Shown piece after piece: positions 6,753-64,000 of a stretch of 64,000 nt of DNA. A program made the position numbers and the translations under genes. Source of the DNA: Spirochaetia bacterium (GTDB lineage Bacteria > Spirochaetota > Spirochaetia > SZUA-6 > Bin103); assembly GCA_965208575.1 (NCBI GenBank), contig CBDBOV010000005.1, forward strand, positions 1,024,001 through 1,088,000. The letters run 5' to 3'. A model generated the notes under the pieces. The model worked only from the letters and a program-made list of their open reading frames with translations. It did no database searches and was not told where the DNA came from. Positions within the stretch are counted from its first letter, which is position 1; every line of letters starts with the position of its first letter.

Positions 6753-6757
6753 GAGCG

Positions 6758-7693: not shown

Positions 7694-7716
7694 GGTTATG
7701 CTTTCCTCACCGGCGA

Positions 7717-8682
7717 CTATCGATACCGGACCCTGGGGTCCAGGTAGGGATAGACCAGGTCGGTCAGGAGAATGCTCAACATCACTATGGAGGCGTAGAA
7801 CAGGTTGACTCCGGAGACCACCGTGTAGTCGCGGAGTTGCAGGGCGTTCAGCAGGAGACGGCCGATCCCCGGCAGGTTGAAGATGTGCTCCATGATCACC
7901 GAGCCTCCGATCAGAAGCGGCAACTGCATGCCGATCAGGGTCACGACCGGGATCAGCGCATTCTTGATGGCGTGTCTCACAACCACCACCCGCTCGGTGA
8001 GCCCCTTTGACCAGGCGGTGCGCACGTAATCCAGCCGGAGCACTTCCAGCATCGTGGTGCGCATCATCCGCATGGTGCTGGCAGAAGCGGCGGTCCCCAG
8101 AATCAGGCTGGGGATGAGGAGCACGCCGAGATTGCCCAGCGGGTCTTCGCTGAGCGGAACCCACCGCATCGGGGGCGACCAGCCCCACCAGATGGCCGGG
8201 AAGATCATCACCATCAGGGCCAGCCAGAAGTTGGGCGCGGCCAAACCGAGGATGGCGAGCGAGCGCCCGGCGTAGTCGGCGACGCTGTCCTGGCGCACCG
8301 CCGAATAGATGCCGACCGGCAACGCGATCACCAACCCGATGACGATGGCCAGGATACCCAGTTCCAGGGTGACCGGCAGTCTCTCGATGATCCCCTTCTC
8401 CACCGGCCAATCCCCCATCAGCGAAGTGCCAAGGCTGCCGTGCAGGAAAATACCTCCCATCCAGCGTCCATACTGCACCCAGACCGGCACGTCCAGTCCC
8501 AGCATGCGCTCCAGCGCTTCCCGGTCGAACCCCTCCCCGGTACCGCCGGCCACCACCGTCATTGACTCCATGACGTCGATCACGTCGCCGGGGATGAAGC
8601 GCACCGAGAGAAACACGATGATGCTCACCAGGAACAGGGTGGGGATGATCAGTAATATCCGCCTGATGATATAGGCTCTCAT
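7717..8682 (-). CDS. Peptide/nickel ABC transporter permease (DppB/OppB-like)
   Basis: 'MRAYIIRRILL', 'RLPVTLEL', 'DYVRTAWSKGL', 'HAIKNALIPV', 'LDPRVRY'. Confidence 0.93.
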   Translation of the reverse strand: MRAYIIRRILLIIPTLFLVSIIVFLSVRFIPGDVIDVMESMTVVAGGTGEGFDREALERMLGLDVPVWVQYGRWMGGIFLHGSLGTSLMGDWPVEKGIIERLPVTLELGILAIVIGLVIALPVGIYSAVRQDSVADYAGRSLAILGLAAPNFWLALMVMIFPAIWWGWSPPMRWVPLSEDPLGNLGVLLIPSLILGTAASASTMRMMRTTMLEVLRLDYVRTAWSKGLTERVVVVRHAIKNALIPVVTLIGMQLPLLIGGSVIMEHIFNLPGIGRLLLNALQLRDYTVVSGVNLFYASIVMLSILLTDLVYPYLDPRVRYR

Positions 8683-8708
8683 CTCGCACACCTCATCGCG
8701 GCGTAATC

Positions 8709-8759
8709 CGAAGTGGACCGGGCAGGCAGTTCTTCTGCCTTGCTGCCCGGTCCACTTCG
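8709..8759. terminator. Long stem-loop after the SBP gene (mRNA stabiliser or partial terminator)
   Basis: 17-bp perfect inverted repeat CGAAGTGGACCGGGCAG (8709-8725) / CTGCCCGGTCCACTTCG (8743-8759) between the SBP and permease genes; no U-tract. Confidence 0.7.
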
Positions 8760-8778
8760 CGTACTTCCCGTCGGCCTG

Positions 8779-10572
8779 CTACTGGCTCATGGCCTTCACT
8801 TCCTGGTCAATCCAGAGCCGGGCGTAGATGGGAGCGCTGTTGCACTGGTTGCACAACTCGCCTTCACCGTTGTAACCGATGACCCATGGCTGCGCCGCGG
8901 TGAACTGCGGGATCTTGGGACCCCATATGATCTCGTGCTTCTGTATCATGAGCATGTCGCACTCTTTGACCAGCCGCGCCTCCTCCTCATAGCTGGTGGC
9001 GGCCATGATCGCTTCATGCAAGGCCGTTTGCGCCGGATCATCCGGAACCTTCATGTAATGCGTCGCATCCGTATAGCACATGCCGGCAGGAGGATAGTCC
9101 AACCCCAGGAACCCCATGGCCAGCCCGGGCCAGGACGCGTCCCTGGCCTGGACCATCCAGGAAGGATGGTCCATCGGGTCCTTCTCCGCAGCAATGCCAA
9201 CCTCCGCCAAGTAGGCTATGACGATGTCGTAATAGCCCGTATCGTGGTAGGAACCGACGAATACCATGGGCAGTTCGAATCTCGTGCCGTCCTCGCCGCG
9301 CGGATACCCGGCCTCGTCGAGCAGCCGTTCGGCACCCTCCGGGTCATAGCGCCAGTATTGCTTGATCTCCTCCGGCCACTCTTCGAACGGGTTGTTGTAC
9401 CCGCCGAGGATATTGTCCCCGACTCGCCCTTGGGGCTCCCACTTGCCATAACCCTGGAAGTAGGTATCGTTGATGGTCTCAAGGTCCAACGCCATCTGTA
9501 TGGCGTGGCGCACGCGGATGTCGTCGGTGGGCGAGGGCACGAAAGGATTGTAAGCCCGGTAACTGTAGTTGGACCGATAATCCCACGGGTAGAGCCTGAT
9601 CTCGGGGTTGGTCTCCTGCAGGCTTTCCGCCATTTCGACATTGGCAAAGGAAGCCGCCGTGATGAGCATGTCAAGCTTGCCCGAGCGCAGTGCCGCGGCG
9701 ACGGTTGCCGGTTCCCGAATGATCAGGTTCGTCAACTCGTCGGTATAGGGCAAGCGGTTCTCGGGGTATTTCTCGTCGAAGCCCCAGTAGTTGGGATTCC
9801 TGGTATAGGTAATCGAGCTCTCTTCGACCCAGTCCGTTATCTCATAGGGCCCGGTGCCCACCAGGTTCTGCCAGTCCGCTCTGTTGATGTTGCCGTCTCG
9901 CTTGATTACCTCGGGGGGCATCATGTGCGCATTGTTGGCGATCTTCAACGGCCCATCGAGGATGGGATGCTTCAACTTGAACACCACCGTTCGTTCGTCG
10001 GGGGCCGTTACCGATTCGAGCGGCAAGGCCGCGCTGCGACCGCCCGCATAGCTGGGGCTCGGTTCGGTAAAGCCACTGCCCAGACCGAGAAAACGGTGAT
10101 AGTTGAATACGATGTCATCGGCAGTCAACTCCCGGCCGTTCATCGGTTCCTTGTCGTGCCAGTGAACGCCCTCGCGGATGCGGAATACGTACGTCAGCGG
10201 GTCGGAAACGTCCCAGCTTTCCGCGAGCTGACCGGTCAGGACCGAGGTCGGCAGATACACCGGGGCAAAGTCGAACGTGTCCCGGCTTATTCCCCAGTCC
10301 GCGATGGCGAGCGTCTCGTTGACGCCGCCGATGAAATACGCCGCCCCGCAGCAATAGGCTGCGTCTATCGAGTTCTCTGCATATCCCGGCTGGGAATAGG
10401 TGATTGTCCCGCCGTATTGTGGCGCGGTCACCATCTTGCCGGTGGTGGGGTCGGTCACCATTTCCTTCTCGGCGGCGGCCGCCGGTGCCTCTTCGCTGGC
10501 AGCGGCCCAGAGGCCGGTCGCGGTCAGAACGAGGACCAACGCAACCGCGAAGGTCTTTGTTGCAGTGTGCAT
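8779..10572 (-). CDS. Peptide/nickel ABC transporter substrate-binding protein (family 5, DppA/OppA-like)
   Basis: Signal peptide, 'PQYGGTIT', 'LAESWDVSD...FRIREGVHWHD...GRELTADD', 'VGTGPY', 'VRHAIQMALD', 'YDPEGAERLLDEAGYP'. Confidence 0.93.
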   Translation of the reverse strand: MHTATKTFAVALVLVLTATGLWAAASEEAPAAAAEKEMVTDPTTGKMVTAPQYGGTITYSQPGYAENSIDAAYCCGAAYFIGGVNETLAIADWGISRDTFDFAPVYLPTSVLTGQLAESWDVSDPLTYVFRIREGVHWHDKEPMNGRELTADDIVFNYHRFLGLGSGFTEPSPSYAGGRSAALPLESVTAPDERTVVFKLKHPILDGPLKIANNAHMMPPEVIKRDGNINRADWQNLVGTGPYEITDWVEESSITYTRNPNYWGFDEKYPENRLPYTDELTNLIIREPATVAAALRSGKLDMLITAASFANVEMAESLQETNPEIRLYPWDYRSNYSYRAYNPFVPSPTDDIRVRHAIQMALDLETINDTYFQGYGKWEPQGRVGDNILGGYNNPFEEWPEEIKQYWRYDPEGAERLLDEAGYPRGEDGTRFELPMVFVGSYHDTGYYDIVIAYLAEVGIAAEKDPMDHPSWMVQARDASWPGLAMGFLGLDYPPAGMCYTDATHYMKVPDDPAQTALHEAIMAATSYEEEARLVKECDMLMIQKHEIIWGPKIPQFTAAQPWVIGYNGEGELCNQCNSAPIYARLWIDQEVKAMSQ

Positions 10573-11001
10573 AACTCACTCCAGATGTGTGATTCCGAGA
10601 GCAGTGCGTGGCGAATTGCCGCTCCCTGCGCTCTCAGCGCCCGCAACGCGGGCGGCAAGCAGAGACGACAACGTGGAGCCGATGGGGAACTGTGCCGCGC
10701 GCGGCGTGTGACTCACGGGTGCACGCCGCGCGCGCGTTGAGGTTCTTTGCGTATCAAGTGCACCTCCTGAGCGCCGGAAATCGGCGGGGTGTGGCGAATG
10801 TGATTGACTGGCAACGGCGGCCGGCGGTCGGTTCTGCGACGGTGAGTCGGGGAGCGGGACCCAGGAGGTTTGCGATGGTAAGCGAACGAAGGTGGACTGA
10901 GCCGGTGCCGCGCGGAGCCGGCCGCGGCCCCGGCGCTGCCGGCGAAGGCGCCCGAGCGGCGATCAGCCGTGGAGGTTAAAGGTTTCTCGTATAAAGAGTT
11001 G

Positions 11002-11027
11002 CCCCCCGGGGGGGGGGGGGGGGGGGG
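11002..11027. repeat. C6-G20 homopolymer tract
   Basis: Seen directly: CCCCCC followed by 20 G. May be a sequencing or assembly artefact. Confidence 0.9.
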
Positions 11028-11194
11028 CGAGGGGCGTACCGGTTGCGTCAACTGGTAGCAGTTCTGAGTGCTATGGTCGCGCATGGTCGGCATGGGTCCG
11101 AAACCCCTCAGTCAGTGACCATGCACCATCCGATCCCGTCCGTCAACTGCTCGTTCTGCGCGTCTCTGCGCGTCTGGGTGGTCCGGGTGCGTCC

Positions 11195-12001
11195 CTACAA
11201 CTTGTACATGAACCCGCCGCCGACCTCGATGGTCTCGCCCGTGATGAAGCGGGCGTCCGCGGAACTGAGGAACAGGATCATGTTGGCGATGTCATCGGCC
11301 TGGAGCTGGCCGTCCAGGACCTGCAGCAGGTCGCGCAGTCCCTCGAGCCAGTGATGGCCCTGCTTGTCTACGATGAGCTGCGGACGGATCGCATTGACCC
11401 TGATGTGGTGCGGCCCGCCCATGCTGGCGGTGACGCGGGTCAGGCCTTCGAGTCCGGCCTTGGACGCATAGTAGCTAGACACGTCGAAGCCCCCACCAAC
11501 TTCCAGGAGCCTGGTCGTAAAGCCGCCGCCGGCGGCCCCCGACGATATGTTGGTGATGACCCCGCCTCCGGCTTCCACCAGGTGCGGCCACACCGCCCGG
11601 GTCATGTAGAAGGGACCGGTCAGGTTGGTACCGACAACGCGATCCCAGGTCTCGTTGTCTTCCAGCCGCATCGGTTCCCCGGCTCTGCCGCCGAGCGCGC
11701 CGCCGCCGGCGTTGTTCACCAGTATCTGCACGCCGCCGTAGGCTTCGACCGTCTGCGCCACCGCGGCCTCGACCGAAGCATGGTCGCTTACGTCGCAGGT
11801 CACGAAGGTGGCGTCGCCGCCGGCCGCGCGAATCTCGTCCTGCACGGCTCGACCCTTGTCCTGCCCTCTGGCCAGCAACGCGACCTTGGCGCCCGCGCGC
11901 GCCAGTACCTTGCCGGTGGCTTCACCGATCCCGCTGTTGCCGCCGGTAACGATGGCGACCCTGCCATCCAGTCTGTGTGCCCCATCCGGTCTGTGTGCCA
12001 T
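11195..12001 (-). CDS. Classical SDR oxidoreductase
   Basis: 'VTGGNSGIG', 'LVNNAG', 'NISS', YxxxK 'YYASK', 'IRVNAI', 'FITGETIEVGGG'. Confidence 0.93.
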   Translation of the reverse strand: MAHRPDGAHRLDGRVAIVTGGNSGIGEATGKVLARAGAKVALLARGQDKGRAVQDEIRAAGGDATFVTCDVSDHASVEAAVAQTVEAYGGVQILVNNAGGGALGGRAGEPMRLEDNETWDRVVGTNLTGPFYMTRAVWPHLVEAGGGVITNISSGAAGGGFTTRLLEVGGGFDVSSYYASKAGLEGLTRVTASMGGPHHIRVNAIRPQLIVDKQGHHWLEGLRDLLQVLDGQLQADDIANMILFLSSADARFITGETIEVGGGFMYKL

Positions 12002-12178
12002 TGTGCCTCACCGCCTCGTAGATCCCACGCCGGGTCGGATACTTCAGCATACTCCGGATCGAACAGCGGCGAGAACGCCGGCACGACCGGTTCGGTTTGC
12101 CCTGTTTGCACCAACTGCCAGAACTGTCAGGTGGAGGGCACACGGACCAGCCGGCTTCGCGTATGCTGAAAGCGTCCA

Positions 12179-12382
12179 ATGCACGACGAGAACTACAAGC
12201 GGATCTTCGCCTCCCCGCGCGTAATCGAGGATCTCCTGCGGGGCTTCGTCCCCGGCGACTGGCCGCACGACGCCGGCGCCCGGCATGGCGCCAACGGAGC
12301 TGAGCCAGCGCCGCGGATTCGCCGCGCGCAGGTAGGCTGTCGAACCGGCCCTTCAACCAACCACCATGACGCCCTTGTGTAG
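12179..12382 (+). pseudogene. Truncated Rpn/YhgA-like (recombination-promoting nuclease / putative transposase) remnant
   Basis: The first ~28 aa 'MHDENYKRIFASPRVIEDLLRGFVPGDW' match the typical Rpn N-terminus (HD..YK..F..P....DLL..F); the frame then degenerates, with no PD-(D/E)xK core. Confidence 0.7.
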
Positions 12383-12487
12383 TGCCGCTGCAGGCCGGCC
12401 GGGCCGGGATAGCGAGGTTCGGTCGACAGGCGGGAGTGATGTCCGGGCTTCCCTGTCACGGAGTGTTCGTGCAGACTCTCACGCGGT

Positions 12488-14377
12488 ATGAGCAAGGCGA
12501 CCCCGACCCTGGAGATTCGCGCGCACCTGGAGCGCGAGTATGAAGACGTGTACACCTCGGAGGTGCTCGACGCACTGCACGCCCTCGCCGGGTTCAACGA
12601 GCAGCGCAGGCGGCTGATGCGCGAGCGCATCGAGCGGCGGAGCCGGCGGGCGCGGGAAGGGGAGCGCATCGGCTTCCTCTTACCCGGCGCCACCATCGCC
12701 GGCACCGGCATCGGTGTGCAGGCGGCGCGCGTCGGCCGCTTCGCCGGCAGCGAGATACCGCACGACCTGCAGCGGCAGTGGATCCAGGGCACCGGCCCCG
12801 GCGCCAAGCCCAATACGCCGGTAGCTCGCAGCATCCGCAACGTCGCCTACGCGCTGCTGTCGGGGGCGGACGGCTGGATGTTCGACGGCGAGGATGCGCT
12901 CGGCCAGATCACCACCATGTCGCTTGACAACCAGCGCAACCTGCGCCTGGCGATCGCCGGCGACGACGTGTTCCTGAACGCCGCCGAGCAAGTGGCGGTC
13001 GGCATGAACACCTGGGGACAGAGCTTCTTCGGGCGCGCCATCGTCGACGACTGGCGGGCGCAGTTGGCGTTTACCACCAAGATCTTCCGCGCCCGCGGCC
13101 TGCACCTCGACGACCGCCACGTGCGCGAAGCGGGCGGTAGCGGGTTCTCGGCCTCCATCGTGGACGCCGTGATGTACGTGACCAACAACCACCGCCGCCT
13201 TGCGGAGCAGGGATCGTCGATCGTGCTCTACCTGCCCAAGATCCAGACCGCCGAGGAGGCGGCGCTGTGGGGCGCCATGCTCGACGCCCTGGAGGGCCAC
13301 CTCGGCATCGCCGCGGGGTCGATCAAGGCTTACGTGCTGGTCGAGCAACTGGAGGCGTCGTTCCAGCTCATGGAGATCCGCGCCGCCCTCGGGCAGCACT
13401 TCGTCGGCTTCAACACCGGGCGCTGGGACTACATCAACAGCGTCGCCGACGCCATGGCGTGGGACGGCTCGTTCATCAACCCCAACATCGACGCCATCCT
13501 GATGACCTACGGCTACATGCGCAACTACGAGGACCGCGTGCGGCGCGCCGTAAACACCGCGGATCAGAACGGCAACTACGCGCTGTGGCAGGGCGGCATG
13601 GAGCCCAACATCCCGGTCGGTTCGGAGGCTGGCGTGGAGGCGTCGATGAACAAGGCGGTGGCCGGCGGCGAGCGCGAGCAGCAGGCGGGCGCGAGCGGCA
13701 AGTGGGTGGCGCACTGGAAGATGGTGCACATCGTGCGCCCGGTGTGGGAGCGGGCGGGGGCGGCCAACCAGCTCGGGCGCGCGTTCCCGGCGCTCACCTA
13801 CACCGACGCGGACGCCGCCGGTCTGACCGAGCTGGAGGAGGCGCCGCGCACGGTGCGCGGGGCGCGCGACCTGCTGAGCGTGGCGCTGCAGTACGGCAAC
13901 GCGTTCGGGCAGGGCATGCAGGCCGCCGCCCTGAAGCCGGCCGACTCGTTCGGCGACGACGACGTGCTGTACCTGATGGAGGACATGGCCACCGGCGAGA
14001 TCCGCCTCAGCATCCTGTGGGAGTGGCTGCACAAGGGCGCCGCGCTCACCGCGGACGACCCCGACACCGGCCTGGCCGCCGGCACCCGCTTCACGGCGGA
14101 GATCTTCGAGCGCCTGCTGTCCGAGGAGTACGGCAAGCTGCAGGCCGCCGACAACCGCGACGTGCACGACGACTCCAAGCGCACCACGCTGCCGGTGGCG
14201 CGTGAGATCGCCGACGTGTACGTGCTCGACGGGGTAAAGACGCCGTGGTATATCGACCTCCTGAACATCAACCTCAACAACCACGACCTGGCCGAGGCCA
14301 AGCGGCGCATCGCGAGCTACGTGCAGGCGTTCCACCGCGACGGCACCCGCATCACCGAGAACCTCGACTTCGCCTAG
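12488..14377 (+). CDS. aceB: Malate synthase (A-type-like)
   Basis: 'WMFDGED', 'FRARGLHLDDRH', 'LYLPKIQTAEEAALW', 'IKAYVLVE', 'GFNTGRWDYINS', 'GKWVAH', catalytic 'LMEDMATGEIR'. Confidence 0.85.
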   Translation: MSKATPTLEIRAHLEREYEDVYTSEVLDALHALAGFNEQRRRLMRERIERRSRRAREGERIGFLLPGATIAGTGIGVQAARVGRFAGSEIPHDLQRQWIQGTGPGAKPNTPVARSIRNVAYALLSGADGWMFDGEDALGQITTMSLDNQRNLRLAIAGDDVFLNAAEQVAVGMNTWGQSFFGRAIVDDWRAQLAFTTKIFRARGLHLDDRHVREAGGSGFSASIVDAVMYVTNNHRRLAEQGSSIVLYLPKIQTAEEAALWGAMLDALEGHLGIAAGSIKAYVLVEQLEASFQLMEIRAALGQHFVGFNTGRWDYINSVADAMAWDGSFINPNIDAILMTYGYMRNYEDRVRRAVNTADQNGNYALWQGGMEPNIPVGSEAGVEASMNKAVAGGEREQQAGASGKWVAHWKMVHIVRPVWERAGAANQLGRAFPALTYTDADAAGLTELEEAPRTVRGARDLLSVALQYGNAFGQGMQAAALKPADSFGDDDVLYLMEDMATGEIRLSILWEWLHKGAALTADDPDTGLAAGTRFTAEIFERLLSEEYGKLQAADNRDVHDDSKRTTLPVAREIADVYVLDGVKTPWYIDLLNINLNNHDLAEAKRRIASYVQAFHRDGTRITENLDFA

Positions 14378-50331: not shown

Positions 50332-50775
50332 ATGACCGCATCTCCGGCCCGGCGCACACCGGTCAGCGTCCGCCGTGCCCGAATCGTCGATACGCTCCTG
50401 ATCGCCCTGGTCGTGTTCGACCTCGTCGTGGCGGTCGGCGCATTCCTGTTTCCGCAGCTCTGGTACCGGATCCTGCACGGCGCCGAGCACGTGGATCCGG
50501 CGGGTCTGCTGAGGCGCACCGGAGCAATCTGGGTGGCGTTCACGGTCGTGCAGGTGCTCGCGCTGCCGCGCTGGCGTACCGCTCCCCACTGGCTGGTCCT
50601 GGTGTGCGGCATCCGGCTCAGCGAGCTGTTCGCCGACTGGACCTGGCTGGTGTTCGCCGAGCAGGTGACGCCGTTCGGCACCGCCGCGCTGCTGTTCACC
50701 CTGCCTGCCAACCTGCTGATCTGCTGGTTTCTGTTCGCCACCTACCGGCACGCGGTGCGGGAGCGCTCGGAGTAG
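50332..50775 (+). CDS. Hypothetical 4-TM membrane protein
   Basis: 147 aa, four hydrophobic segments carrying D/E/R/Q residues; high-GC3 codon usage; TATACT 9 nt upstream. Confidence 0.75.
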   Translation: MTASPARRTPVSVRRARIVDTLLIALVVFDLVVAVGAFLFPQLWYRILHGAEHVDPAGLLRRTGAIWVAFTVVQVLALPRWRTAPHWLVLVCGIRLSELFADWTWLVFAEQVTPFGTAALLFTLPANLLICWFLFATYRHAVRERSE

Positions 50776-50861: not shown

Positions 50862-51881
50862 ATGCGAGTCCTGGTAACGGGAGGCGGCGGATTCGTCGGC
50901 CGCGCCGTCGTCGAGCGGCTGCTTGCCCGCGGCTACCAGGTGCGCTGCTTCGCCCGATCGGCCTACCCGGAACTGGCGGGCCGCGGGGTGGAAGTGATGC
51001 GTGGCGACCTGGCCGACCGGCGCGCTGCCGCGACTGCCTGCGCCGGCTGCGATGCGGTGGTGCACGCGGCGGCGCTGATCCCCGGCGTCGCCGAGCCGGC
51101 ACACCGCTACCGCGCCGTGAACGTGGGCGGCACGGAGGCGATCGTCGCCGGCTGCCGCGCCCATGGCGTGCCGCGGCTGGTATTCACCAGTTCGCCGAGC
51201 GTGGTGTTCGGCGGCCATGACCTGTGCGGGGTCGACGAGTCGGTTCCCTACCCGCGGCGCTACGACTCCCCCTACGCGCGTACCAAGGCGGAGGCCGAGC
51301 GCGTGGTGCTGGCCGCCAACGACGGCAGCCTGGCCACCACGGCGCTGCGGCCCCACCTGGTGTGGGGGCCGGGCGACGCGCACCTGGTGCCGGAGCTGAT
51401 CGCCCGGGCGCGCGCGGGCCGGCTGGTGCGCGTGGGGCGCGGCCCGTTCCGGGTCGACGTGACCTACATCGACTGCGCCGCCGAGGCGCACCTGCTGGCG
51501 CTCGACGCCCTGTCGCCCGGCAGCGCCGCGGCCGGCCGCGCCTACTTCATCTCGCAGGGCGAGCCGGTGGACCTGTGGCAGTTCGTCGGCCGGCTGCTGA
51601 ACATGGCCGGCGTAGCGCCGGTGCGCCGCCAGGTACCGCGCTGGCTGGCACTGGCCGCGGCCGGCGCCGTGGAGGGCGCGTTCCGAGTCTCCGGGCGCAC
51701 GGCGGCGCCGCCGCTGACCCGCTTCCTGGTGCGCGAGATCTCTTCCTCGCACTGGTTCGACACAGGCGCCGCGCGCCGCGACCTCGGCTACCGGCCGCCG
51801 GTTTCGATCGACGAGGGCCTCGTCCGGCTCGCGCGGTGGTGGCAGGCCGGCGGCGCAGCAGTCGGCGGTTACCGCGGCTAG
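50862..51881 (+). CDS. OleD-like 2-alkyl-3-oxoacyl reductase / 3-beta-HSD-family extended SDR
   Basis: 'MRVLVTGGGGFVG', 'YPEL...GV...RGDLAD', 'FTSSPSVV', 'YARTKAEAER.VLAAND', 'LRPHLVWGPGD', 'TYID.AA.AH', 'PLTRFL', 'ARRDLGY.P.VSIDEGL' match OleD as recalled over the whole length. Confidence 0.82.
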   Translation: MRVLVTGGGGFVGRAVVERLLARGYQVRCFARSAYPELAGRGVEVMRGDLADRRAAATACAGCDAVVHAAALIPGVAEPAHRYRAVNVGGTEAIVAGCRAHGVPRLVFTSSPSVVFGGHDLCGVDESVPYPRRYDSPYARTKAEAERVVLAANDGSLATTALRPHLVWGPGDAHLVPELIARARAGRLVRVGRGPFRVDVTYIDCAAEAHLLALDALSPGSAAAGRAYFISQGEPVDLWQFVGRLLNMAGVAPVRRQVPRWLALAAAGAVEGAFRVSGRTAAPPLTRFLVREISSSHWFDTGAARRDLGYRPPVSIDEGLVRLARWWQAGGAAVGGYRG

Positions 51882-53485
51882 CCGGTCTTCCAGTCGACCA
51901 GCTCGCTGAGCACCAGCATGCCGTCGTGCGGCATGCCGGGGTAGGTGTAGCCGGCCTGGCCGAGCGGCGGCACGTTGCTTACGCCGCGCGCCGCGATCCG
52001 CACCGCAAGCTCGCGTCGGCGCGGCTCGGGATACACCCCGGCGGTTGCCACGCCGGGATGCAGGAAGCGCAGCGCGCGCTCCAGGCTGGCTACCGGGCGG
52101 ACCACGATGAGCCGGCACAGCGGGTGCTCGGTGATGTTGAACTCCTGCGGCATCACCGCCACCGCGGAGTGGAACTCGCCGTCGGCACGGTTCTCGAACC
52201 AGGTGGCGCCCAGGAAGCTGCCGCGCTTCATGCGCCGGATCTGGCCCTGCTGGCTCCGGCTCAGCGCGGCCGGCGCGAAGCGGTCCCAGCGCCCGAGCTC
52301 GTCGCGCAGCGCGGCGGCGTAGCGCTCGGCGCCCGCCTGGTCCGCCTCCAGGTAGTGGATCTGCGAGGCGATGCACGCCTTCTGGCTTTGGATCAGCGTG
52401 TCGCACACCGCGCGGCCCACCACCTGCGGCAGGTCGTCGAACGCCTCGCGTCCGATCAGGCTTACGCCGTAGCGCGGGTTGAAGGTCACGGTCTTGGTGA
52501 AGGCGGCGCGCTCGCGCACCGACAGCACCGCGCCGGGGGCGCCCCACACCACGATGCGGTCGTAGCGGCCCGGCAGGAACAGCGGCGCCTCGAACTGCTC
52601 GTCGCCGCCCGGCCAGTACAGCACCGACAGGTGGCGGGTAAGCGGATGATCGGGAAAGGTGCGCGCGGCCAGCAGGGCCAGGTAGGCGCCCGCCAGGGTG
52701 GCGCCGTACGGCAGCTTGATGGTCGCGGCCGACTTGGTCCACAGGGCGCGCAGGAGCGAGGCCAGCGGCACCAGCGGCGAGTTGCCGGCGGTAATGTGGA
52801 GTTGGCGGGTGGGCAGGGCGCGCAGGCGCGGCACCGCGGCGGCGGGGTCGTAGCCGGCGATCGGCGGCAGATGCTGGGCGTGGATCAGGTGCACGGGAGC
52901 GGGATACACGGTGCCCGGCACCTCCACCCAGCCATCCAGGAAGCGCCGCCCCGGTATCTCCCAGGTAGCCAGGTCGGTGTCCACCATGGTCTCGGCGACG
53001 GCGCCCGCAAGCATCACCGGGAACATCGCAAAACCCGCTTCCACGTAGGGATCCGGTGCCTCCGACGTGGCGCGCACCCATGCCTTGACCTGGCGCAGCA
53101 ACTCCGCGTCGGCGCCGTACGCCTGCTGCAGGCCGTCCACGTAGCGCACCACGTCGCCGAATTCGAGGTCGTACAGCCCCGCGGCGAGCGTATCGAGATC
53201 GTCCTCCACCAGGTCGAGCGGCGTCACCTCCGGCAGCACCTGGTACTGCCAGGCGCCGGAGGCACGCATCGAGGCGCGGTCCAGTACCGGCTCACGCAGC
53301 ACCCACGCCCCGTTCAACCTGACCAGGGTCGGGGGATCGCCGCCGCCGCGCTGCCGCTCTTCGGTCGCGAAGGCGGCCTCGATTTCCCGCCTGCCGACCG
53401 CCGGCGGCGCAACCAGCGTGCCGCGCACCAGCGCCGGCACCGAGATTACGCCGTCGTCATCGGCCGCAATGGTCGGCTCGTCCAT
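51878..53485 (-). CDS. LuxC-like acyl-CoA/acyl-protein reductase
   Basis: 'HITAGNSP', 'LLRALWTKSAATIK', 'YWPGGD', 'IVVWG', catalytic 'QKACIAS', C-terminal 'PHDGMLVLSELV'. Confidence 0.85.
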   Translation of the reverse strand: MDEPTIAADDDGVISVPALVRGTLVAPPAVGRREIEAAFATEERQRGGGDPPTLVRLNGAWVLREPVLDRASMRASGAWQYQVLPEVTPLDLVEDDLDTLAAGLYDLEFGDVVRYVDGLQQAYGADAELLRQVKAWVRATSEAPDPYVEAGFAMFPVMLAGAVAETMVDTDLATWEIPGRRFLDGWVEVPGTVYPAPVHLIHAQHLPPIAGYDPAAAVPRLRALPTRQLHITAGNSPLVPLASLLRALWTKSAATIKLPYGATLAGAYLALLAARTFPDHPLTRHLSVLYWPGGDEQFEAPLFLPGRYDRIVVWGAPGAVLSVRERAAFTKTVTFNPRYGVSLIGREAFDDLPQVVGRAVCDTLIQSQKACIASQIHYLEADQAGAERYAAALRDELGRWDRFAPAALSRSQQGQIRRMKRGSFLGATWFENRADGEFHSAVAVMPQEFNITEHPLCRLIVVRPVASLERALRFLHPGVATAGVYPEPRRRELAVRIAARGVSNVPPLGQAGYTYPGMPHDGMLVLSELVDWKTG

Positions 53486-53494
53486 GGGTCGCCG

Positions 53495-54907
53495 TCAGCC
53501 CTGCATGGCGGCCATGATGCCGCCGCAGCCCTTTACCTCCCGTCCGGTAGCGCGCCCGATGTCGGAAATCGTCACGCCGCCCACCCCGCACGGGCAACCG
53601 CCGGTGCGGCGCCGCACGTTGTCGCCGGTGATGATGAATCCCGGATAGCAGGCCGCATAGGGATCGAGAAACCCGAAGCCGCCATGGATGTCGTCTCCGG
53701 TCACCGGCTCCAGGGCCTCGTCGAAGATCACCGTCTCGGTGATCGGCGGCACGTGGAAGCGGCCTTCGCGGCAGCGCGGGAACACCACCTGCGCCTCGGT
53801 CATCGAGTAACCCTCGTTGACGCGCTCCGGGCGGACGCCCAGGCTCTGCTCGATCAGCGCCAGGAACGCCGGCTCGTCGATCCGGTCGCCTTCGAAGCTC
53901 TTCCAGCCGCCGCCGTGAGACAGCATGCTGCCGGGCCGCAGTACGACTTCCTCGCCCTCCGCCACCAGCCACTCGCAGAACTCCTTGATCATGAACGGGG
54001 CGCCGAACAGCAGCGTTCGGCGGCGCGCGGCGATCGAGTCGCGCAGTGCGGCCAGCACGCGCCGGAAGTTGTCGGCCCGGCGCCGCACGGTGGCGTCCAG
54101 GAACGCATCGGAGAGCTGCCGTTCGCGCTCGTCGGCCGGACCGCGCACCAGCGCGCGCACCACCGTCGCCGACAGCTCCAGATCGAACAGAAAGGTGGCG
54201 CGCCCGACCATCCGGGCGAGCGTCTGCCCCACCACCTGCGTGCCCTGGGTACCGCCGGAGAACGACAGAAAGACGCCGTCGAAGCCGCGCAGGCCGCGGC
54301 GCCGGAAGAACTCGCCAAAGCCGTCCGGGCCGAGCATGCGCGCCGCGGTGCGGGCGGCGGTGCGTTCCCAGGCGCGCGCGGCGCCCTGGCGCATCTGAAA
54401 CAGGGGAATGTAGGACACCCCGAGCCCGGTAAGCTGCGACCAGGTGTAGGCATCGCGCGGGACGAACGAAATGTGCCCGCTGGTACCGGAACTGAATACC
54501 GTGTGGATGCCGTGCTCCGCCAGGCAGGCGAGCCATTGGTCGATCGAGGTCACGCCGTCGACGTCGGTTTCCACGGGACGGTCGAACACCTGCCGCAGCC
54601 AGCCATTCATGGCGCCGTAGTCGTGGTTGTCAATGTGTTCCTGGGGATACGACTTGAAGATGTGGTCGGTGGACATCATCTCGGCGGCGATCTGCGCCGT
54701 GTCGGCGTCGCGCTGCACCTCTGCCTGGTCGGCGAGCCGGCGATAGATCGGAACACGGTCGTAGTAGTGCCGGTGATTCGTGCGGATTGCCGCGAAGCGC
54801 AGTTTACGCGCATAATCCTCATCCACCGTACCGCTCATCGCCCAGCGCATTGCGAGGGCCGTGAGTTGCAGGTGGAGCGCGCGTATTTCGGCGTGGTGGT
54901 CAGACAT
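53495..54907 (-). CDS. LuxE-like acyl-protein synthetase (adenylate-forming)
   Basis: P-loop 'FSSGTSG', 'GGGWKS', 'YSMTE', 'FLDP....YPGFIITGD', C-terminal acylation motif 'GR..GREVKGCG'. Confidence 0.83.
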   Translation of the reverse strand: MSDHHAEIRALHLQLTALAMRWAMSGTVDEDYARKLRFAAIRTNHRHYYDRVPIYRRLADQAEVQRDADTAQIAAEMMSTDHIFKSYPQEHIDNHDYGAMNGWLRQVFDRPVETDVDGVTSIDQWLACLAEHGIHTVFSSGTSGHISFVPRDAYTWSQLTGLGVSYIPLFQMRQGAARAWERTAARTAARMLGPDGFGEFFRRRGLRGFDGVFLSFSGGTQGTQVVGQTLARMVGRATFLFDLELSATVVRALVRGPADERERQLSDAFLDATVRRRADNFRRVLAALRDSIAARRRTLLFGAPFMIKEFCEWLVAEGEEVVLRPGSMLSHGGGWKSFEGDRIDEPAFLALIEQSLGVRPERVNEGYSMTEAQVVFPRCREGRFHVPPITETVIFDEALEPVTGDDIHGGFGFLDPYAACYPGFIITGDNVRRRTGGCPCGVGGVTISDIGRATGREVKGCGGIMAAMQG

Positions 54908-55054
54908 GGGCCGCGATGCCGGCGCGCCAAACTACACAGGTTGGCCCTTCCCGGTCAACGGGCCGCTCGCACGTGGCGCAGCGGCGGATCGTGCCCTGTG
55001 CCCGCTAAGGATGTAGCAGTTGAACATGACCACGCGCCGACCCGGAGGCGCAGC

Positions 55055-57040
55055 GTGACCGCGAACACCAGCGTCGAGAGCCTCGGCGTCTATCTTCCCG
55101 AACGGGAAGTGACCACCACCGAAGTGGTAAAGGGCTGCCGGCGGCGCGTGTTGATTCCCCTGGAACGCCTGACCGGCATTCGCAGCCGGCGCATGGCCGG
55201 CGACACCGAGTTCTCCGTCGACCTGGCCCACAACGCGGTAGCGAGGTGCCTCGCCGGGTCGCGTCATGGCGCGGCGGATATCGACCTGATCGTCGCTGCC
55301 AATATCTCCAAGCAGGATTCGCCGCTTACCTACAACGTCGAGCCGACCACCGCCGCGGTGCTGCGCCGCCAGTTCGGCCTGCACCGCGCCCTTGCCTTCG
55401 ATCTGAGCAATGCGTGCGCCGGCGTATTCACGGCGATCATGGCGGTGGACGAGCTTATTCGGCGCGGTGACGTGCGCCGCGCGCTGGTGGTCAGCGGCGA
55501 GTACATCACCCATCTCACCGCCACCGCGCAGCGCGAGCTGCACGGGCTGCACGACGAACGGTTGGCGTGCCTGACCCTCGGGGATGCCGGCGTGTGCCTG
55601 CTGCTCGAGCACGGCGCGGGCTTCGACTTCATCGAAATCTACACCGTACCGGAGCACGCCGAGCTGTGCATTGCCCACTCTGCCGAGTCGCACGGGGCGA
55701 TCATGTTTACCGACTCGGTGCGCCTCGCTCGCGCCGGCATCGCCGAGGTTGTCACCCAGTACGAAAATGTCGCGGAGTCGGGCAGGGTCACCACCGAACC
55801 GCGCTACTTCATTCCGCACCAGACTTCCTCCAACTCGATCAAGGAAGCCACGCGCGCCACCAATCGCCGTCTCGGACGCCGCGTCTGCCACTCGGACAAC
55901 ATGGTGGACAACCTGCGGCACCGCGGCAACACGGCAACCACTTCGCACTGGGTAGCGGTCAAGGACCTGGTCGAGAGGTCTGCGTTGCAACCGGGCGATC
56001 GCGTGTTGTTCAGCATCACGGCGTCCGGGATCACCGTGGGCCTCGCTCAGTATCGCGTCGAGCAGTTCGCCGCCCGCATGGCGAACGGCGAGCCGGCGCC
56101 GCAGCCGCCACCGGCAGCCGCGTCGGACAACGCCGCGCGCGGTTACTACCGCGCCGTTCCCCCGGGTGAGCGCGTGCGGGTGAGCGCGGCGGCCACTGCT
56201 ACACCGGAAACGGATGCCGAACGCGGCAACGTCAAGCTCGCCGCGCATGCGGTGCGGCGTGCCCTGGACGCCGCGCACGCGCCGGCCGGCCAGCCGGGGC
56301 TGCTGGTGTATTCGGGGGTGTACCGGGAGGCGTTCATCTCCGAGCCGGCGCTGGCCACCATGGTGGCCAAGGAGCTGGGCATCAAGGGGTCTCGCCTCGA
56401 CCACAACGGGCCGCCGTTTCTGGCGTTCGACCTGATGAATGGACCGCCCGGCGTGTTGATGGCGTGCCAGGTAGCGGGTCGCATGCTGCTGTCGCGCGAC
56501 GGCGTGGCGGTGATCGCCGCCTCGGAGTTCAACGAAACCCCGGTCGACGGTCAGCCGCCGCTGGGACTGGCCAGTGCCGGCTCCGCCCTGGTGCTGGAGC
56601 GCAGTACCGGCCGGGCCGGCTTCCGCAGTTTCTTCGTCGACACGCATGCCGAGTACCTGGACTGGTACCGCGCGTACGCCTATACGGACGACTCGGGGCC
56701 GCCGCGGCTGCGCGTGGAACGCGACGACCGTCTGGCCGAGCGGCTGCCGGAGGCGGTGGCGGGGAGCGTGACCGAGCTGCTGCGCCGGGAGCGTGTTTCT
56801 CTCGACGACTTCGCGGTGATCTTTCCGCCGCAGCTTGGGCCGGAGTTCCTGGACCGGCTGGCGGACTGCCTCGGCGTGGAGCGCAGCAGGTTCGTGTCGT
56901 GCGGCGGCGGAAACCTGTTTACGGCCGCCCCGGCGGCGGGGTGGGAAGCGGCCGGCGCGCGCGCGGTCCCGGGCAGCCTGGGCCTGTTTCTTGCGGCCGG
57001 CGCCGGCATCGAAGTCGCCTGCGCCACCTACGAATTCTGA
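55055..57040 (+). CDS. Didomain KAS III/OleA-like condensing enzyme (active N-terminal + degenerate C-terminal thiolase-fold domain)
   Basis: GTG 55055 with GGAGG RBS. Domain 1: 'LTGIRSRR', 'VEPTTA', 'FDLSNAC', 'LTLGDAG', 'IPHQ', 'RGNT'. Domain 2: 'SEPALA', 'FDLMNGP', 'FPPQ', 'GNLF'. Confidence 0.85.
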   Translation: MTANTSVESLGVYLPEREVTTTEVVKGCRRRVLIPLERLTGIRSRRMAGDTEFSVDLAHNAVARCLAGSRHGAADIDLIVAANISKQDSPLTYNVEPTTAAVLRRQFGLHRALAFDLSNACAGVFTAIMAVDELIRRGDVRRALVVSGEYITHLTATAQRELHGLHDERLACLTLGDAGVCLLLEHGAGFDFIEIYTVPEHAELCIAHSAESHGAIMFTDSVRLARAGIAEVVTQYENVAESGRVTTEPRYFIPHQTSSNSIKEATRATNRRLGRRVCHSDNMVDNLRHRGNTATTSHWVAVKDLVERSALQPGDRVLFSITASGITVGLAQYRVEQFAARMANGEPAPQPPPAAASDNAARGYYRAVPPGERVRVSAAATATPETDAERGNVKLAAHAVRRALDAAHAPAGQPGLLVYSGVYREAFISEPALATMVAKELGIKGSRLDHNGPPFLAFDLMNGPPGVLMACQVAGRMLLSRDGVAVIAASEFNETPVDGQPPLGLASAGSALVLERSTGRAGFRSFFVDTHAEYLDWYRAYAYTDDSGPPRLRVERDDRLAERLPEAVAGSVTELLRRERVSLDDFAVIFPPQLGPEFLDRLADCLGVERSRFVSCGGGNLFTAAPAAGWEAAGARAVPGSLGLFLAAGAGIEVACATYEF

Positions 57041-57052
57041 TCCGGGAATCTT

Positions 57053-58099
57053 CTATTCGCGAATCGCGGCCGTGCGCAAGCCTCCGGCGGCCAGCACCAG
57101 CGCCAGCCCGGCGCGGAAGTCGATTTCCGGTCGAAACCCGAAGTCGCGGTACGAGCGGCTCATGTCGTAGAACACGTCGCGCGAGAGGTAGGCCAGCGCG
57201 TCGCGCGTTACCATGGCGCTCATGCCGGGGGCGAGCAACCGCACCGCCGCCGGCAGCAGCGGCCCGAGCAGCCGGCACAAGCCGGCGGGCACCGGCACTA
57301 TGGCCGGGGAAGACCGGCCGGTGAGTTCCGCATGCACGTCGAACAGGGCGCGCAGCGGCTGCGGATTGCCGGTAGCGGCGTTGTAGGTGGCGCCATCCGC
57401 CGCCGGAGCGGCCGCCGCCTGCACCATGAGGCGTGCGACATCGCTCACGTATCCGAAGTCGACCAGGTGGCGGCCGCCGTCCACCAGCGGAACGCGCCGC
57501 ATGCGCGCCATGGCCAGCGCGGCGGGCAGGAAGTGGCGGTCGCCCGGCCCATAGGTGGCGCTCGGCCGCACGATCGTGTAACCCAGCCCGCGCGCGCCGT
57601 ACTCGCGCACCACGCCTTCCGCTTCCACCTTGGAGCGTCCGTAGGCGGACAGCGGCGCCAGCGGGCTGTGCTCCCCGATCGGGGACGCCGCGCCGGGGCG
57701 ATAGACGCCGGTGGTACTGGCGAACACGAAGCGCCGTACGCCGGCATCGGTGCTCGCGGCGAGCATCCGCTCGGTCAGATCCACGTTGGCGGCGCGATAG
57801 GGCGCATAGTCCTCGCCGGCGCTGAACGGCGCGCCGGCGTGCAGATAGCCGGCAACGTGGAACACCGAGACCACGCCGCGCAGCGCGGCGGCGACGGCGG
57901 CGCGGTCGGACAGGTCGGCGCGCAGCACGTCGATGTTGGGGTGGCGGACGGCCGGCGGCCCGCTCGACGGGCGCAGCAGGCAGCGCACGGGATGGCCGGC
58001 GGCGGCCAGTTGGGCGGCCACTTCGCCGCCGATCATGCCGGAGGCGCCGGTGACCAGCGCCGGCGGACGGTCCGGTTCGCTGCGCCGCCTCGCCGTCAC
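57053..58099 (-). CDS. NAD-dependent epimerase/dehydratase, extended SDR (3-beta-HSD/HpnA-like)
   Basis: 'LVTGASGMIG', 'VFHVAG', 'FVFASTTGVY', 'YGRSK', 'RPSATYGPGD'; GTG start overlaps the GT1 stop. Confidence 0.88.
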   Translation of the reverse strand: MTARRRSEPDRPPALVTGASGMIGGEVAAQLAAAGHPVRCLLRPSSGPPAVRHPNIDVLRADLSDRAAVAAALRGVVSVFHVAGYLHAGAPFSAGEDYAPYRAANVDLTERMLAASTDAGVRRFVFASTTGVYRPGAASPIGEHSPLAPLSAYGRSKVEAEGVVREYGARGLGYTIVRPSATYGPGDRHFLPAALAMARMRRVPLVDGGRHLVDFGYVSDVARLMVQAAAAPAADGATYNAATGNPQPLRALFDVHAELTGRSSPAIVPVPAGLCRLLGPLLPAAVRLLAPGMSAMVTRDALAYLSRDVFYDMSRSYRDFGFRPEIDFRAGLALVLAAGGLRTAAIRE

Positions 58100-59379
58100 G
58101 ACGACCGCCCGTGCAGGCGGCGCCGGAGTGCGCGTACCGCGGTCGCCACGCCATCCTCGCTCCTGATCCGGGCCCCTATCTCGGCGGCGCGGGCACGCAC
58201 CGAGGGATCGGAGGCGGCGCTGCACAACGCGTCAGCCAGCCGGTCGGCGGTGAGGCGCCGCCGCGGCACCGGCCGCGGCCCCACTGCCAGTTCGTGCACC
58301 CGGCTGCCCCAGAAGTGCTGATCGCCGAAGAACGGCACCACCACCTGCGGCACGCCGTGGCGCAGGCCGGTGGCGGTGGTGCCGGCGCCGCCGTGATGGA
58401 TCACCGCGGCCGTGCGCGGGAACAGCCAGTCGTGCGGTACCCAGTCGAGCATCAGCATGTCGGGTGGAAGTTGCGCCGGGGTGAGGCCGCCCCAGCCGGT
58501 GGCCAGCACGCCGCGCAGCCCGCAGCGGCGCAGCGCGCTGAACACGATACCGGTGAGATCCTCCTCGCCGTCGCTGCTCATGCTGCCGAATCCGACATAC
58601 ACCGGCGGTGCGCCGCCGGCGAGGAAGCGCTGCAACTGTGCATCCGGGCGCCAGCCGTCGCCGTCCTCGTCCAGGAACCAGTAGCCGGTCACCTGGACGT
58701 GGTCGTCCCAGTCGGCCGGGCGCGGCAGCACCGCCGGGCTGAACCCGTACAGCAGGAGACTGCCGCGCAGGTTGGACGCGAACGTGTGCCGGCGCGGCGC
58801 CGGAGGCAGCTCCAGGAGGTCGGCTCGTACCGCGTTGGTGGGCGCACGCAGCACGTGCCAGAGCAGAAACTCGACCAGCCGGTGACTGGCGTAATTGTAC
58901 GTGCGGCGCACCGGCGCCGGTCCCGGCAACTCGTGGAAGAACACCGACGGCAGGTACCCGCTCGGGGTGGCAGGCTGCAGGAACGCCGCGGCCAGCGGCA
59001 CCTCGAGCCGCTCCGCGAGGTTCCAGGCGGCGAAGTAACCGAGCAGTCCGGTCACGATTGCCTCGGCGTCGCGGCATGCCCGGAAGCAATCGTTCATCAG
59101 CTCCTGGCCGAAGGAGAGCGCGAGTTCGCGGAAGTGGCGGATGAACAACAGCGGGTTGGTGCCGCTGCGCACCCAGCCGCGGCCGAGGCGGCTGTCGATG
59201 ATGTCGCGTGGATTGACCTCGACGGCGCGGAAGCCGAGCCCGCGGTCGGTCACCATCCTCTCGAAATAGCGGTGCGTGGCGAAGATGACCTGTTCGCCGG
59301 CGCGGCTCAGACCCTCGGCGAGGGCGAGCAACGGACGAACGTCCCCGTGGGTGCCGAGAGCGACGACGCAGATGCGCAT
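58096..59379 (-). CDS. GT1 glycosyltransferase, sterol 3-beta-glucosyltransferase-like
   Basis: '[10 protein letters not shown]', '[15 protein letters not shown]', 'VTGYWFL', '[10 protein letters not shown]', 'PHDWLFP', 'IHHGGAGTT', '[10 protein letters not shown]'. Confidence 0.92.
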
Positions 59380-62192: not shown

Positions 62193-63494
62193 TCATCCCG
62201 CGATATCGAGCCGATGCGCCGCGTCGATGCGGGCGGCCACGGCACCCGGCACTCCTGCCTGCCCGGCGAACTCCGGCCAGCGCCGCACGGCCTCTCCGAC
62301 CTGGCCCAGAATGTCGGAGGCACGGCCACGCTGCATGGCGGCGTTGCGCGCGCAAGCGACGAAGTCGTCTGCCGCGAAGCGGTCGCGTTTGCCGTTCAGG
62401 GACATCTGGTGAACGCCGGTCCAGGATCCTGATGGGTTGTAGCTATAGGTGACGTCGAATGCGGGTGCGAGCGACCAGCGCCCCGACCGATCCATCAGGA
62501 ACGCGATGTTCTTGACGTGGTCGTCCTGGTTGCGAGCGACCACGTTGAACGCCATGCGGCGGAACTGCTCCTCCACTGCATCCTTGCCAAGCTCCAGTTG
62601 TTCGATCACGCGGAGCGCTTGCTCGTAGGAGTGGGCGCCGGCCTGGTTGAAGTCGAAGTGCGCCATCGCGCCGAGCGACAGCAGGTGAATCTTGTCGCCT
62701 GCCGCGGATCGGTCGAAGCGCCTGGTCATGAAGTGATCGCGTCCGCCCTCGCGCAGGATTCGGCACGCGGCCATGGTGATGCCCGCGGCTCGAGCCATCA
62801 GGTGATAAGCGTATTCGATCAGTCCGTATCCACGTGGATCCTCGAGCTCGCGGTCACGGTTCCCGGCTACCCCGTCGAACTTCAGCAGCCAGGAGGAGAA
62901 CCGGTCGCCGGCGGAGACCTGCCCGGAACGCACCTCGCCGGTGGTAGGATTCCAGGCGATGATCGCCTTGGCGCGGGCGCCGCCGGCCGAGGTACCCACG
63001 CGGAGGATGCTTTGCAGCGCCTGCTGCCGCCGGTGCGCCGTGAAGGAGCCGGCGAGACTCCTCCGGTTCGTGAGTATCTCACCCGCCAGTTCGACGAGAG
63101 CCGCCACCTCTACCGCGGACTGTCGATGGGCGGGGCCGGTGGCCGGCACGAACTCCAGGGCTCCCATGCCGCGTTCGCCGACGTAACAGAGCCGTTCCAC
63201 CGGATTGAAGTCGCCCGGAGCGCGACCCTGTGCGGCCAGCCAGGCGTCGATGAGTGCGTGGCCGAAGCGGTCGGGGAGCGAGTCGGCAAGCAGTCCCGGA
63301 AGTCCGTGGAACGTCTCCCGCGCCAGGGCGGGGAACGAGTAGATGCCGGCGGCCAGCGGCATCGTGAGCGGGGCAACCTGCCGGCCGCTTGGCAGAAAAT
63401 CCGGAGCGTACTCGAAGGCGGCGTAGCCACGTTCGTCATCCCAGGTCACGGCGCCGATCGTGGTACCCCACATGAGCGCTTCGGCCACCGTCAT
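62193..63494 (-). CDS. hipA: HipA-family kinase toxin
   Basis: N-terminal couple_hipA ('LADSLPD.FG', 'GERGMGALEF'), P-loop 'GTSAGGARAK', 'LLKFD', 'RRFDR', 'NQDDHVKN', 'LAPAFD'. Confidence 0.93.
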   Translation of the reverse strand: MTVAEALMWGTTIGAVTWDDERGYAAFEYAPDFLPSGRQVAPLTMPLAAGIYSFPALARETFHGLPGLLADSLPDRFGHALIDAWLAAQGRAPGDFNPVERLCYVGERGMGALEFVPATGPAHRQSAVEVAALVELAGEILTNRRSLAGSFTAHRRQQALQSILRVGTSAGGARAKAIIAWNPTTGEVRSGQVSAGDRFSSWLLKFDGVAGNRDRELEDPRGYGLIEYAYHLMARAAGITMAACRILREGGRDHFMTRRFDRSAAGDKIHLLSLGAMAHFDFNQAGAHSYEQALRVIEQLELGKDAVEEQFRRMAFNVVARNQDDHVKNIAFLMDRSGRWSLAPAFDVTYSYNPSGSWTGVHQMSLNGKRDRFAADDFVACARNAAMQRGRASDILGQVGEAVRRWPEFAGQAGVPGAVAARIDAAHRLDIAG

Positions 63495-63847
63495 GGCTCA
63501 TCGCCCCAGGTCCATGCCGCGGGGCGCTCACGGATGTGGGTGCCGCCCGGTGAGGACGCGCGGCGGCGCAGCTTGCCGCTCATTCTGAGCTGCTGCATCG
63601 GGCTCGCCGGCGGCTCGGGGACGAGGCCGTCGAGGTGCTCCAGCAACTTGAGGGCGCGCAGGATTCGGATCAGGCTGGAAGCCTGACACGACCTGCCCTG
63701 CTCCAGGCGCTGTACCGTCGGCGCCGAGACCCCCGCCTCGACAGCCAGCGCCGCCTGGGTGAGATTCCGGTTCAGCCGATGGCGCGCAATGCGGGCGCCC
63801 AGTTCCTGCATCGCGGCGGTGTCGTTGGTATGGTGGGTGATCCTCAT
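63491..63847 (-). CDS. XRE/HTH antitoxin (HipB-like)
   Basis: 'LGARIARHRLNRNLTQAALAVEAGVSAPTVQRLEQG'; ATGA overlap with hipA. Confidence 0.85.
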   Translation of the reverse strand: MRITHHTNDTAAMQELGARIARHRLNRNLTQAALAVEAGVSAPTVQRLEQGRSCQASSLIRILRALKLLEHLDGLVPEPPASPMQQLRMSGKLRRRASSPGGTHIRERPAAWTWGDEP

Positions 63848-64000
63848 AGTATAGCAATTCTGATAGGTTGCACGCCTTTCGCTTTCGTTAGCAACCATTT
63901 CTCATTCCTTATATGTTAGCTGAGCGCATCGGGTTGGATCAAGCCGAGGGGCGCTCTTAATACACCTAATTTGATAATTATAGGATCATATCAGTACTTA

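Follow-up and report, generated by a model that had tools for sequence, protein, structure and literature searches.

The window, by which we mean the whole stretch of 64,000 nucleotides that was analysed, holds a gene for a protein of 661 residues in which two domains of the KAS III type (D1 and D2) follow one another. The gene, its neighbours and the key residues of its product are as follows.

50332..50775, plus strand: small hydrophobic protein with no Pfam match, kept in the cluster
50862..51881, plus strand: OleD/LstD-like reductase (378 bits, E 5e-113, with its best model, 2-alkyl-3-oxoalkanoate reductase, whose cut-off is 580)
51878..53485, minus strand: LuxC-like acyl reductase, with Cys371 in QKACIASQ
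53495..54907, minus strand: LuxE-like acyl-protein synthetase, oriented divergently to the didomain gene, with Cys461 in KGCGG
55055..57040, plus strand: fused LstA/LstB-type KAS III didomain gene, 661 aa
55055..56074, plus strand: D1, catalytic A-type KAS III domain, residues 1-340
55340-55342, plus strand: E96 of D1 (VEP at 95)
55415-55417, plus strand: C121 of D1 (NAC at 119)
55817-55819, plus strand: H255 of D1 (PHQ at 254)
55928-55930, plus strand: N292 of D1 (GNT at 291)
56075..56167, plus strand: flexible Ala/Pro-rich linker, about residues 341-371
56168..57040, plus strand: D2, B-type KAS III fold without Cys and His, residues 372-661
56342-56344, plus strand: E430 of D2 (SEPALA at 429), residue 59 of D2
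56444-56446, plus strand: P464 of D2, at the Cys site (DLMNGP at 459)
56828-56830, plus strand: P592 of D2, at the His site (PPQ at 591)
56912-56914, plus strand: N620 of D2
57053..58063, minus strand: second extended SDR of the epimerase/3-beta-HSD type, start uncertain, open reading frame to 58225
58096..59379, minus strand: family 1-type UDP-glycosyltransferase

The didomain gene is a single open frame from a GTG start (55055) to a TGA stop (57040), with no internal stop and with GGAGG at 55044-55048 ahead of the GTG. A promoter scan of 54850-55120 returned 0 sites. The frame also extends open upstream to a total of 1938 codons (51224-57040, plus strand), antisense to luxC and luxE. This extension is probably a GC-rich shadow, given that the open frames of relatives measure 674-750 aa, the closest relative excepted.

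Within the 661-aa protein, the Pfam model for the KAS III N-terminal part matches once and that for the C-terminal part twice. Profile-profile alignment of D1 with D2 (probability 99.96, E 4.1e-39, 274 columns, 22% identity) pairs E96 with E430, C121 with P464, H255 with P592 and N292 with N620; D2 is a true duplicate of the KAS III fold. At 290 residues it is the shorter copy, with about 31 residues of the N-terminal cap deleted and about 12 missing from the active-site flap after the SGE motif, losses that the original prediction does not mention. The original prediction had read the motifs NAC, PHQ, GNT and EP in the first domain, and all are in place (C121, H255, N292, E96-P97). It had also described a second domain that lost its Cys (NGP) and His (PPQ) and retained SEPALA, which P464, P592 and E430-P431 confirm. 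That this domain "keeps only" the Glu was too strong, as N620 is kept and G421, R424, A434, D459 and E491 are 93-100% conserved.

Conservation was examined in two homologue sets. A protein search gave 878 matches among 8000 candidates, of which 120 were listed; the full-length homologues among the matches listed (600-830 aa, query included) are invariant at C121, H255, N292 and E430-P431 (113/113), and E96 is Glu in 112/113. Searching 1.84 billion representatives with a profile yielded 719 matches at E 1e-30, and 118 of the best 150, forming 118 clusters at 50% identity, span both domains at 26-48% identity. In these 118 representatives from the best 150 of 719, E430, P431, H255 and N292 are each present in 118/118 and C121 in 117/118 (1 gap), whereas 0/118 have Cys at 464 or His at 592. 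E96 is always an acid there (Glu in 113, Asp in 5), and position 620 is Asn in 13/118 and Asp in 92/118. At least 90% conservation is found at 42 of 331 positions in D1 and at 11 of 289 in D2, and five of those 11 make up the loop G421-R424-E430-P431-A434. Eight relatives carry the gene complete and with an intact frame, and against these dN/dS is 0.08-0.29 for D1 and 0.20-0.44 for D2 (8/8 pairwise comparisons). From the conservation counts and dN/dS, D2 is maintained, and its Glu loop most of all. Sequencing error or a pseudogene is ruled out by the invariant E430-P431, the intact frames in 8 relatives and dN/dS.

A maintained D2 could nonetheless be a non-catalytic scaffold, its Glu-Pro loop kept for folding or for the interface and the chemistry carried out by D1 residues alone. 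PqsB is such a non-catalytic scaffold partner, of PqsC. This reading, which we regard as very unlikely, draws on the conservation of both Glu-Pro motifs, including that of E96, which would face the dead site, and on the retention in D2 of other structural positions (D459, E491, G522); the near-equal conservation of E96 and E430 would also fit a Glu-Pro loop that serves the structure of each domain. Against it stand an E430 that is never even Asp in the 118 representatives, together with the structural comparisons and the published mutants of split partners described below. The conservation of E96 is itself expected, since the A subunits of split pairs keep their own Glu-Pro (8/8 examined).

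An AlphaFold2 model of the 661 residues (100-row alignment) has a pLDDT of 91.4 and a pTM of 0.94, and its confidence falls below 50 only at residues 352-360 of the linker. D1 and D2 are thus placed confidently against each other and are modelled as one rigid two-domain body. The best structural match of D1 is OleA (Z 40.4, rmsd 1.9, 316 residues), with FabH at 38.3 and lower. D2 modelled alone (pLDDT 90.0) superposes on KAS III chains over 270-279 residues at Z 30-32 and rmsd 2.4-2.6, with FabH, PqsD, BioZ and OleA as its best rows. The full model gives Z 39.8 with OleA, and PqsB (5dwz_B) fits its D1 over 262 residues with Z 20.4 and rmsd 3.6, a difference that leans against the scaffold reading. 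A wide fold search found no solved single chain covering both domains among 48,161 structure representatives. In the same search, the match of several HMG-CoA-synthase-type chains extends to D2 residues 541-555, a weak hint that this D2 hairpin lies against D1.

The position of E430 was compared with that of the OleA glutamate E117. Aligned with OleA chains, the D2 profile scores 72.0-74.3 bits with E117 and 68.6, 68.0 and 67.4 bits with the E117D, E117Q and E117A mutants; the whole protein gives the same order (31.7 with E117 vs 30.2, 30.2 and 29.1). The lower scores of the mutants indicate that the Glu column of the D2 profile falls on OleA E117, a residue described as entering the active site of the opposite subunit (PMC8180931; PMC7064751). 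FabH chains, among the alignments listed, have no Glu at the position equivalent to E430, which also speaks against a scaffold. OleA was not among the matches of short-segment searches.

The likeness of D1 to a homodimeric enzyme raises another arrangement, in which two chains would pair through D1 as in OleA and supply Glu96 in trans, leaving D2 to pair with itself or to act as an accessory. In favour of such pairing are that best structural match and the conservation of E96-P97, at 96-99% across both homologue sets (from the matches listed) and always with an acid at position 96. The single-chain model, in contrast, packs D1 on D2 (pTM 0.94), the invariance of E430 would be left unexplained, and LstA and NltA are inactive alone although A-type subunits keep the equivalent Glu. 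We therefore consider D1-D1 pairing more improbable still than the scaffold. A complex prediction with two copies of D1 gave a median of 0.28 (mark 0.42), which carries no weight either way.

The two halves of the protein have separate counterparts in split A/B pairs. The closest annotated plasmid matches of the didomain are the A genes of Streptomyces and Rhodococcus pairs, and three Streptomyces loci have the order A, B, acyl ligase, reductase and NRPS, as in published clusters of the lipstatin type (bioRxiv 10.1101/856955). D1 shares 32-37% identity with the A proteins of split pairs, and D2 is 28-32% identical to B proteins over 258-295 residues (L012-L015) and 45% over 105 residues (L011). 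D2 and the B subunits have GVYR-x5-EPALA and FDLMNG in common, and E430 aligns with their E59/E60. In L015, the A protein has C128, H271 and N305, to which the D1 triad aligns, and the B protein has E60. These numbers equal those reported for LstA (C128/H271/N305) and LstB (E60; PMC12141560), which makes L015 a fair stand-in; the comparison with A and B was made through such plasmid-cluster stand-ins, not the LstA/LstB or NltA/NltB sequences themselves. LstB E60 and NltB E57 are required for condensation, and LstA and NltA are inactive alone (PMC12141560; bioRxiv 10.1101/856955). The essential Glu of LstB and NltB thus argues against a scaffold role for D2. The original prediction that an LstA/LstB-type heterodimer has been fused naturally into one chain with a single active site is supported, as the halves align with A and B and an OleD-like reductase lies in the locus.

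Split versions of the same family also occur. In Reichenbachiella (L007) the A and B genes overlap, and in two spirochaete-phylum genomes (L112, L113) they lie beside OleC, OleD and an alpha/beta hydrolase (OleC and hydrolase labels assigned by eye). In a quick-method tree of 54 rows (45 of the 119 didomain rows, 8 split pairs and FabH), seven LstA-like split proteins group on a branch of their own (SH-aLRT 99), separate from the fused ones, and the Reichenbachiella pair stands next to a fused protein (94, unstarred). The long FabH branch makes the root unreliable, so the tree gives no order of fusion first or fission first. On the Rhodococcus plasmids L012 and L013, neither a C nor a D gene accompanies the A-B pairs, which are surrounded by universal-stress, CBS, trehalose and wax-ester genes.

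Around the didomain gene of the window, the OleD-like reductase is 37-40% identical to the D genes of lipstatin-type clusters, and the LuxC-like and LuxE-like proteins score far below their model cut-offs. An atlas search with the small neighbour (147 aa) returned unnamed clusters alone. Of 10 related loci, 7 have all seven genes of the cluster, 1 has part of it (contig end) and 2 (L108 and L109) have the didomain but not the cluster. The L109 gene (L109:8898-11024) encodes a didomain with all motifs but has no LuxCE, reductase or glycosyltransferase neighbours, and it shows the highest D2 dN/dS (0.44). Further along the window, at 62193-63898 on the minus strand, lies a pair whose translations suggest to us a kinase of the HipA type with a small HTH partner. 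No OleC/LstC beta-lactone synthetase was found in the locus or in the genome, which is 95% complete; two C-type queries gave partial matches of 27-29% on another contig. An ordinary FabH is encoded elsewhere in the genome (C6).

The didomain gene was found in 11/11 genomes of the genus and in 0/81 others of the order (92 genomes; one match is a 41% copy), and is a genus-level trait in this lineage. LuxE occurs in 9 of the same 92 genomes, all 9 in the didomain genus. In a phylum sample, 9/301 genomes matched at E 1e-30, and only the genome of the window gave a full-length fused match.

The same one-site architecture might serve other chemistry, either the transfer of an acyl group to O or N, or a condensation in which carrier-bound malonyl is decarboxylated. 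KAS III homologues are known as acyltransferases, also beside NRPSs (OxaC; PMC12308425), and in 59 of 91 loci the didomain is joined to a PKS, NRPS or adenylation gene or lies close to one. These acyltransferases use Ser-His-Asp (PMC12308425), whereas C121, H255 and N292 are kept here; the locus has an OleD-like reductase, and the known substrate of OleD is a 2-alkyl-3-oxo acid; and neither a carrier-protein nor a PKS domain was detected between positions 47001 and 64000 of the window. Among the alternatives considered, other chemistry seems to us the least probable.

The evidence as a whole makes it likely that the protein is a single-chain pseudo-heterodimer of the LstAB type, with one site per chain, in which Glu430 would act as the base in a Claisen condensation that is non-decarboxylative; the geometry, the role of Glu430 and the chemistry are what we infer from sequence, model and neighbours. 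D2 would pack on D1 in the way that one subunit of a KAS III dimer packs on the other, and an acyl thioester would be loaded on Cys121. Glu430 would then reach from D2 into the D1 site and take the alpha proton, with His255 and Asn292 stabilising the enolate, and the carbanion would attack a second acyl thioester to give a 2-alkyl-3-oxo acid with no malonyl and no decarboxylation. The OleD-like enzyme may convert this product to a 2-alkyl-3-hydroxy acid, LuxE and LuxC with the second SDR would most likely take the carboxyl to the alcohol, and the glycosyltransferase could add a sugar, yielding a two-tailed, glycerol-free glycolipid. The simplest pathway would therefore comprise condensation, keto reduction, carboxyl reduction and glycosylation. 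With no beta-lactone synthetase found, our tentative choice of product is a glycosylated branched lipid, to which the gene neighbours point with somewhat less than even probability. A literature search found no biochemical reports on any fused member.

It had further been proposed that the asymmetry of the site selects two different acyl chains. This idea is unsupported: NltAB condenses two myristoyl-CoA (bioRxiv 10.1101/856955), OleA already has two channels per site (PMC8180931), and the single-gene NocG is strictly selective for C6 plus C8 (PMC9486936).

Beyond the window, the family extends to the ends of NRPSs. The 118 representatives (from the best 150 of 719) include 44 long proteins, almost all of which finish an NRPS with T-D1-D2. 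Such ends of NRPS and PKS-NRPS proteins are found in P0146-P0269, L005, L030, L037, L041, L043 and others. Counted above 780 aa, 44/47 end T-D1-D2, placing the didomain where a thioesterase is usual, and 34 of these 44 have the order C-A-T-D1-D2. By locus, the didomain is NRPS-fused in 33 of the 91, lies near a PKS, NRPS or adenylation gene in 26, and shows neither in 32 (many loci are short or near-identical). The carrier directly before D1 bears the unusual motif GGAS in 55/77 cases, against 6/43 other carriers, and the condensation domains keep HHxxxD in 51/55. The terminal A domains, judged by eye from specificity codes, presumably resemble Ser, Gly or aromatic types. Named organisms that carry members of the family include Roseimaritima ulvae, with a T-D1-D2 protein (WP_162275898.1), and Nocardia arizonensis. 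It is plausible, with a chance that we would put only just short of even, that D1-D2 is a portable termination unit at NRPS and PKS-NRPS ends, where it would stand in for the thioesterase and free the aminoacyl or peptidyl chain from its carrier through a head-to-head Claisen condensation with a fatty acyl group.

In L041, L045-L048 and L086 (about 2200-12900), a FAAL-carrier gene, C-A(Ser-like)-T-D1-D2, a short-chain reductase and an MGDG-synthase-like glycosyltransferase occur together. These clusters are candidates, judged by their gene content, for a route to a ceramide-like glycolipid without serine palmitoyltransferase. If D1-D2 does terminate such assembly lines, FAAL-ACP, C-A(Ser)-T-D1-D2, reductase and glycosyltransferase would lead, minus CO2, to a ceramide-like skeleton without that enzyme, and the free didomain of the window would make a glycerol-free branched glycolipid.

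Other didomain neighbourhoods are varied. OleC-like, OleD-like and fused D1-D2 genes stand in a row at L078:5237-10001, L081:1113-5964 and L085 (ligase cut by the contig end), which are putative beta-lactone or olefin clusters with a fused enzyme. At L058:2545-8078, a 1402-aa chain has a FAAL upstream of D1-D2 and is followed by a family 1-type glycosyltransferase like that of the window. L018-L020, L027, L028, L066, L067 and others combine D1-D2 with a P450 and a PPTase, often with a divergent FAAL, a luciferase-like gene and a PKS; a P450 occurs in 17/91 didomain loci. In L008, L054, L080 and L084, D1-D2 is followed by a fatty acid hydroxylase and a desaturase, and three of the four also carry a GH3-family gene and two SDRs. 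Further didomain neighbours in the family are FAALs and MMPL.

Fusion of known partner proteins is common, so the single gene is a variant of the LstAB type and not a new type; its value lies in its tractability and in the NRPS-terminal form. A literature search that did not extend to the primary LstAB paper (PubMed 30763089) or to supplements found no description of a fused LstAB/OleA didomain or of its NRPS-terminal form, and no paper on LuxCE with OleD and a glycosyltransferase. The fused didomain, free or NRPS-terminal, is thus apparently undescribed. The primary paper may mention fused homologues, and the supplements of the bioRxiv preprint might show some. A review cites the primary paper when speaking of fusion chimeras (PMC12141560). 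The natural chimeras named in the consulted part of a 2026 article are TalA and Lsd19, not LstAB (PMC13311259), and an introduction of 2025 that deals with chain termination and fusion names FabH-like, AfsA-like, CorB/MxnB and GrgF proteins only (PMC12304814). On their own, LstA and NltA are insoluble, and NltAB loses its activity once purified (PMC12141560; bioRxiv 10.1101/856955); no LstAB structure is reported in the 2025 review (PMC12141560). A natural single chain would allow each Glu to be mutated independently while the ratio stays at 1:1, and it offers a direct way to the structure of a one-site enzyme. The family is broad, and its occurrence at the ends of NRPSs suggests a release chemistry that has gone unrecognised and classes of lipids whose genes have yet to be assigned.

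Among known systems, OleA of Xanthomonas campestris resembles the didomain in its Glu-Pro loop (E117) and in the structural match of D1 at Z about 40. It differs as a homodimer with two sites, whose single KAS III domain holds both Glu and triad, whereas the present protein is a 661-aa didomain. The label OleA, given in the original prediction, is therefore loose: D1 does match OleA best in structure, but identity is about 21% and the score falls short of the OleA model, NF006720, which we take to be the OleA family model (141 bits, cut-off 285). Neither VEPTTA (D1) nor SEPALA (D2) agrees in full with the OleA motif [LIVYF]-E-P-x-x-[VIL] as given in PMC8180931. The FabH model TIGR00747 likewise scores below its cut-off (117 bits against 292), and the didomain differs from FabH in having a Glu in both domains. 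PqsBC is a KAS III-fold heterodimer with one site, but it consists of two chains and is the weaker structural match, whereas the didomain is one chain; we know of no report that its partner subunit gives a catalytic Glu. NocG and PpyS share with the didomain a non-decarboxylative Claisen condensation with Glu, Cys, His and Asn (E100, C125, H275 and N304 in NocG; PMC9486936), but all four residues, by the description in that source, lie in one KAS III domain with no dead second domain.

LstA/LstB and NltA/NltB are the closest counterparts. They resemble the didomain in the Cys-His-Asn of the large part, in a shorter, triad-less part with its Glu at position 57-60, as in D2, and in an OleD/LstD-type reductase nearby. 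The lstABCD and nltABCD clusters include OleC/LstC, in place of which the window has LuxC/LuxE and a glycosyltransferase. LstAB and NltAB are two polypeptides from adjacent genes, whereas the didomain is one polypeptide, a fused variant of the same type.
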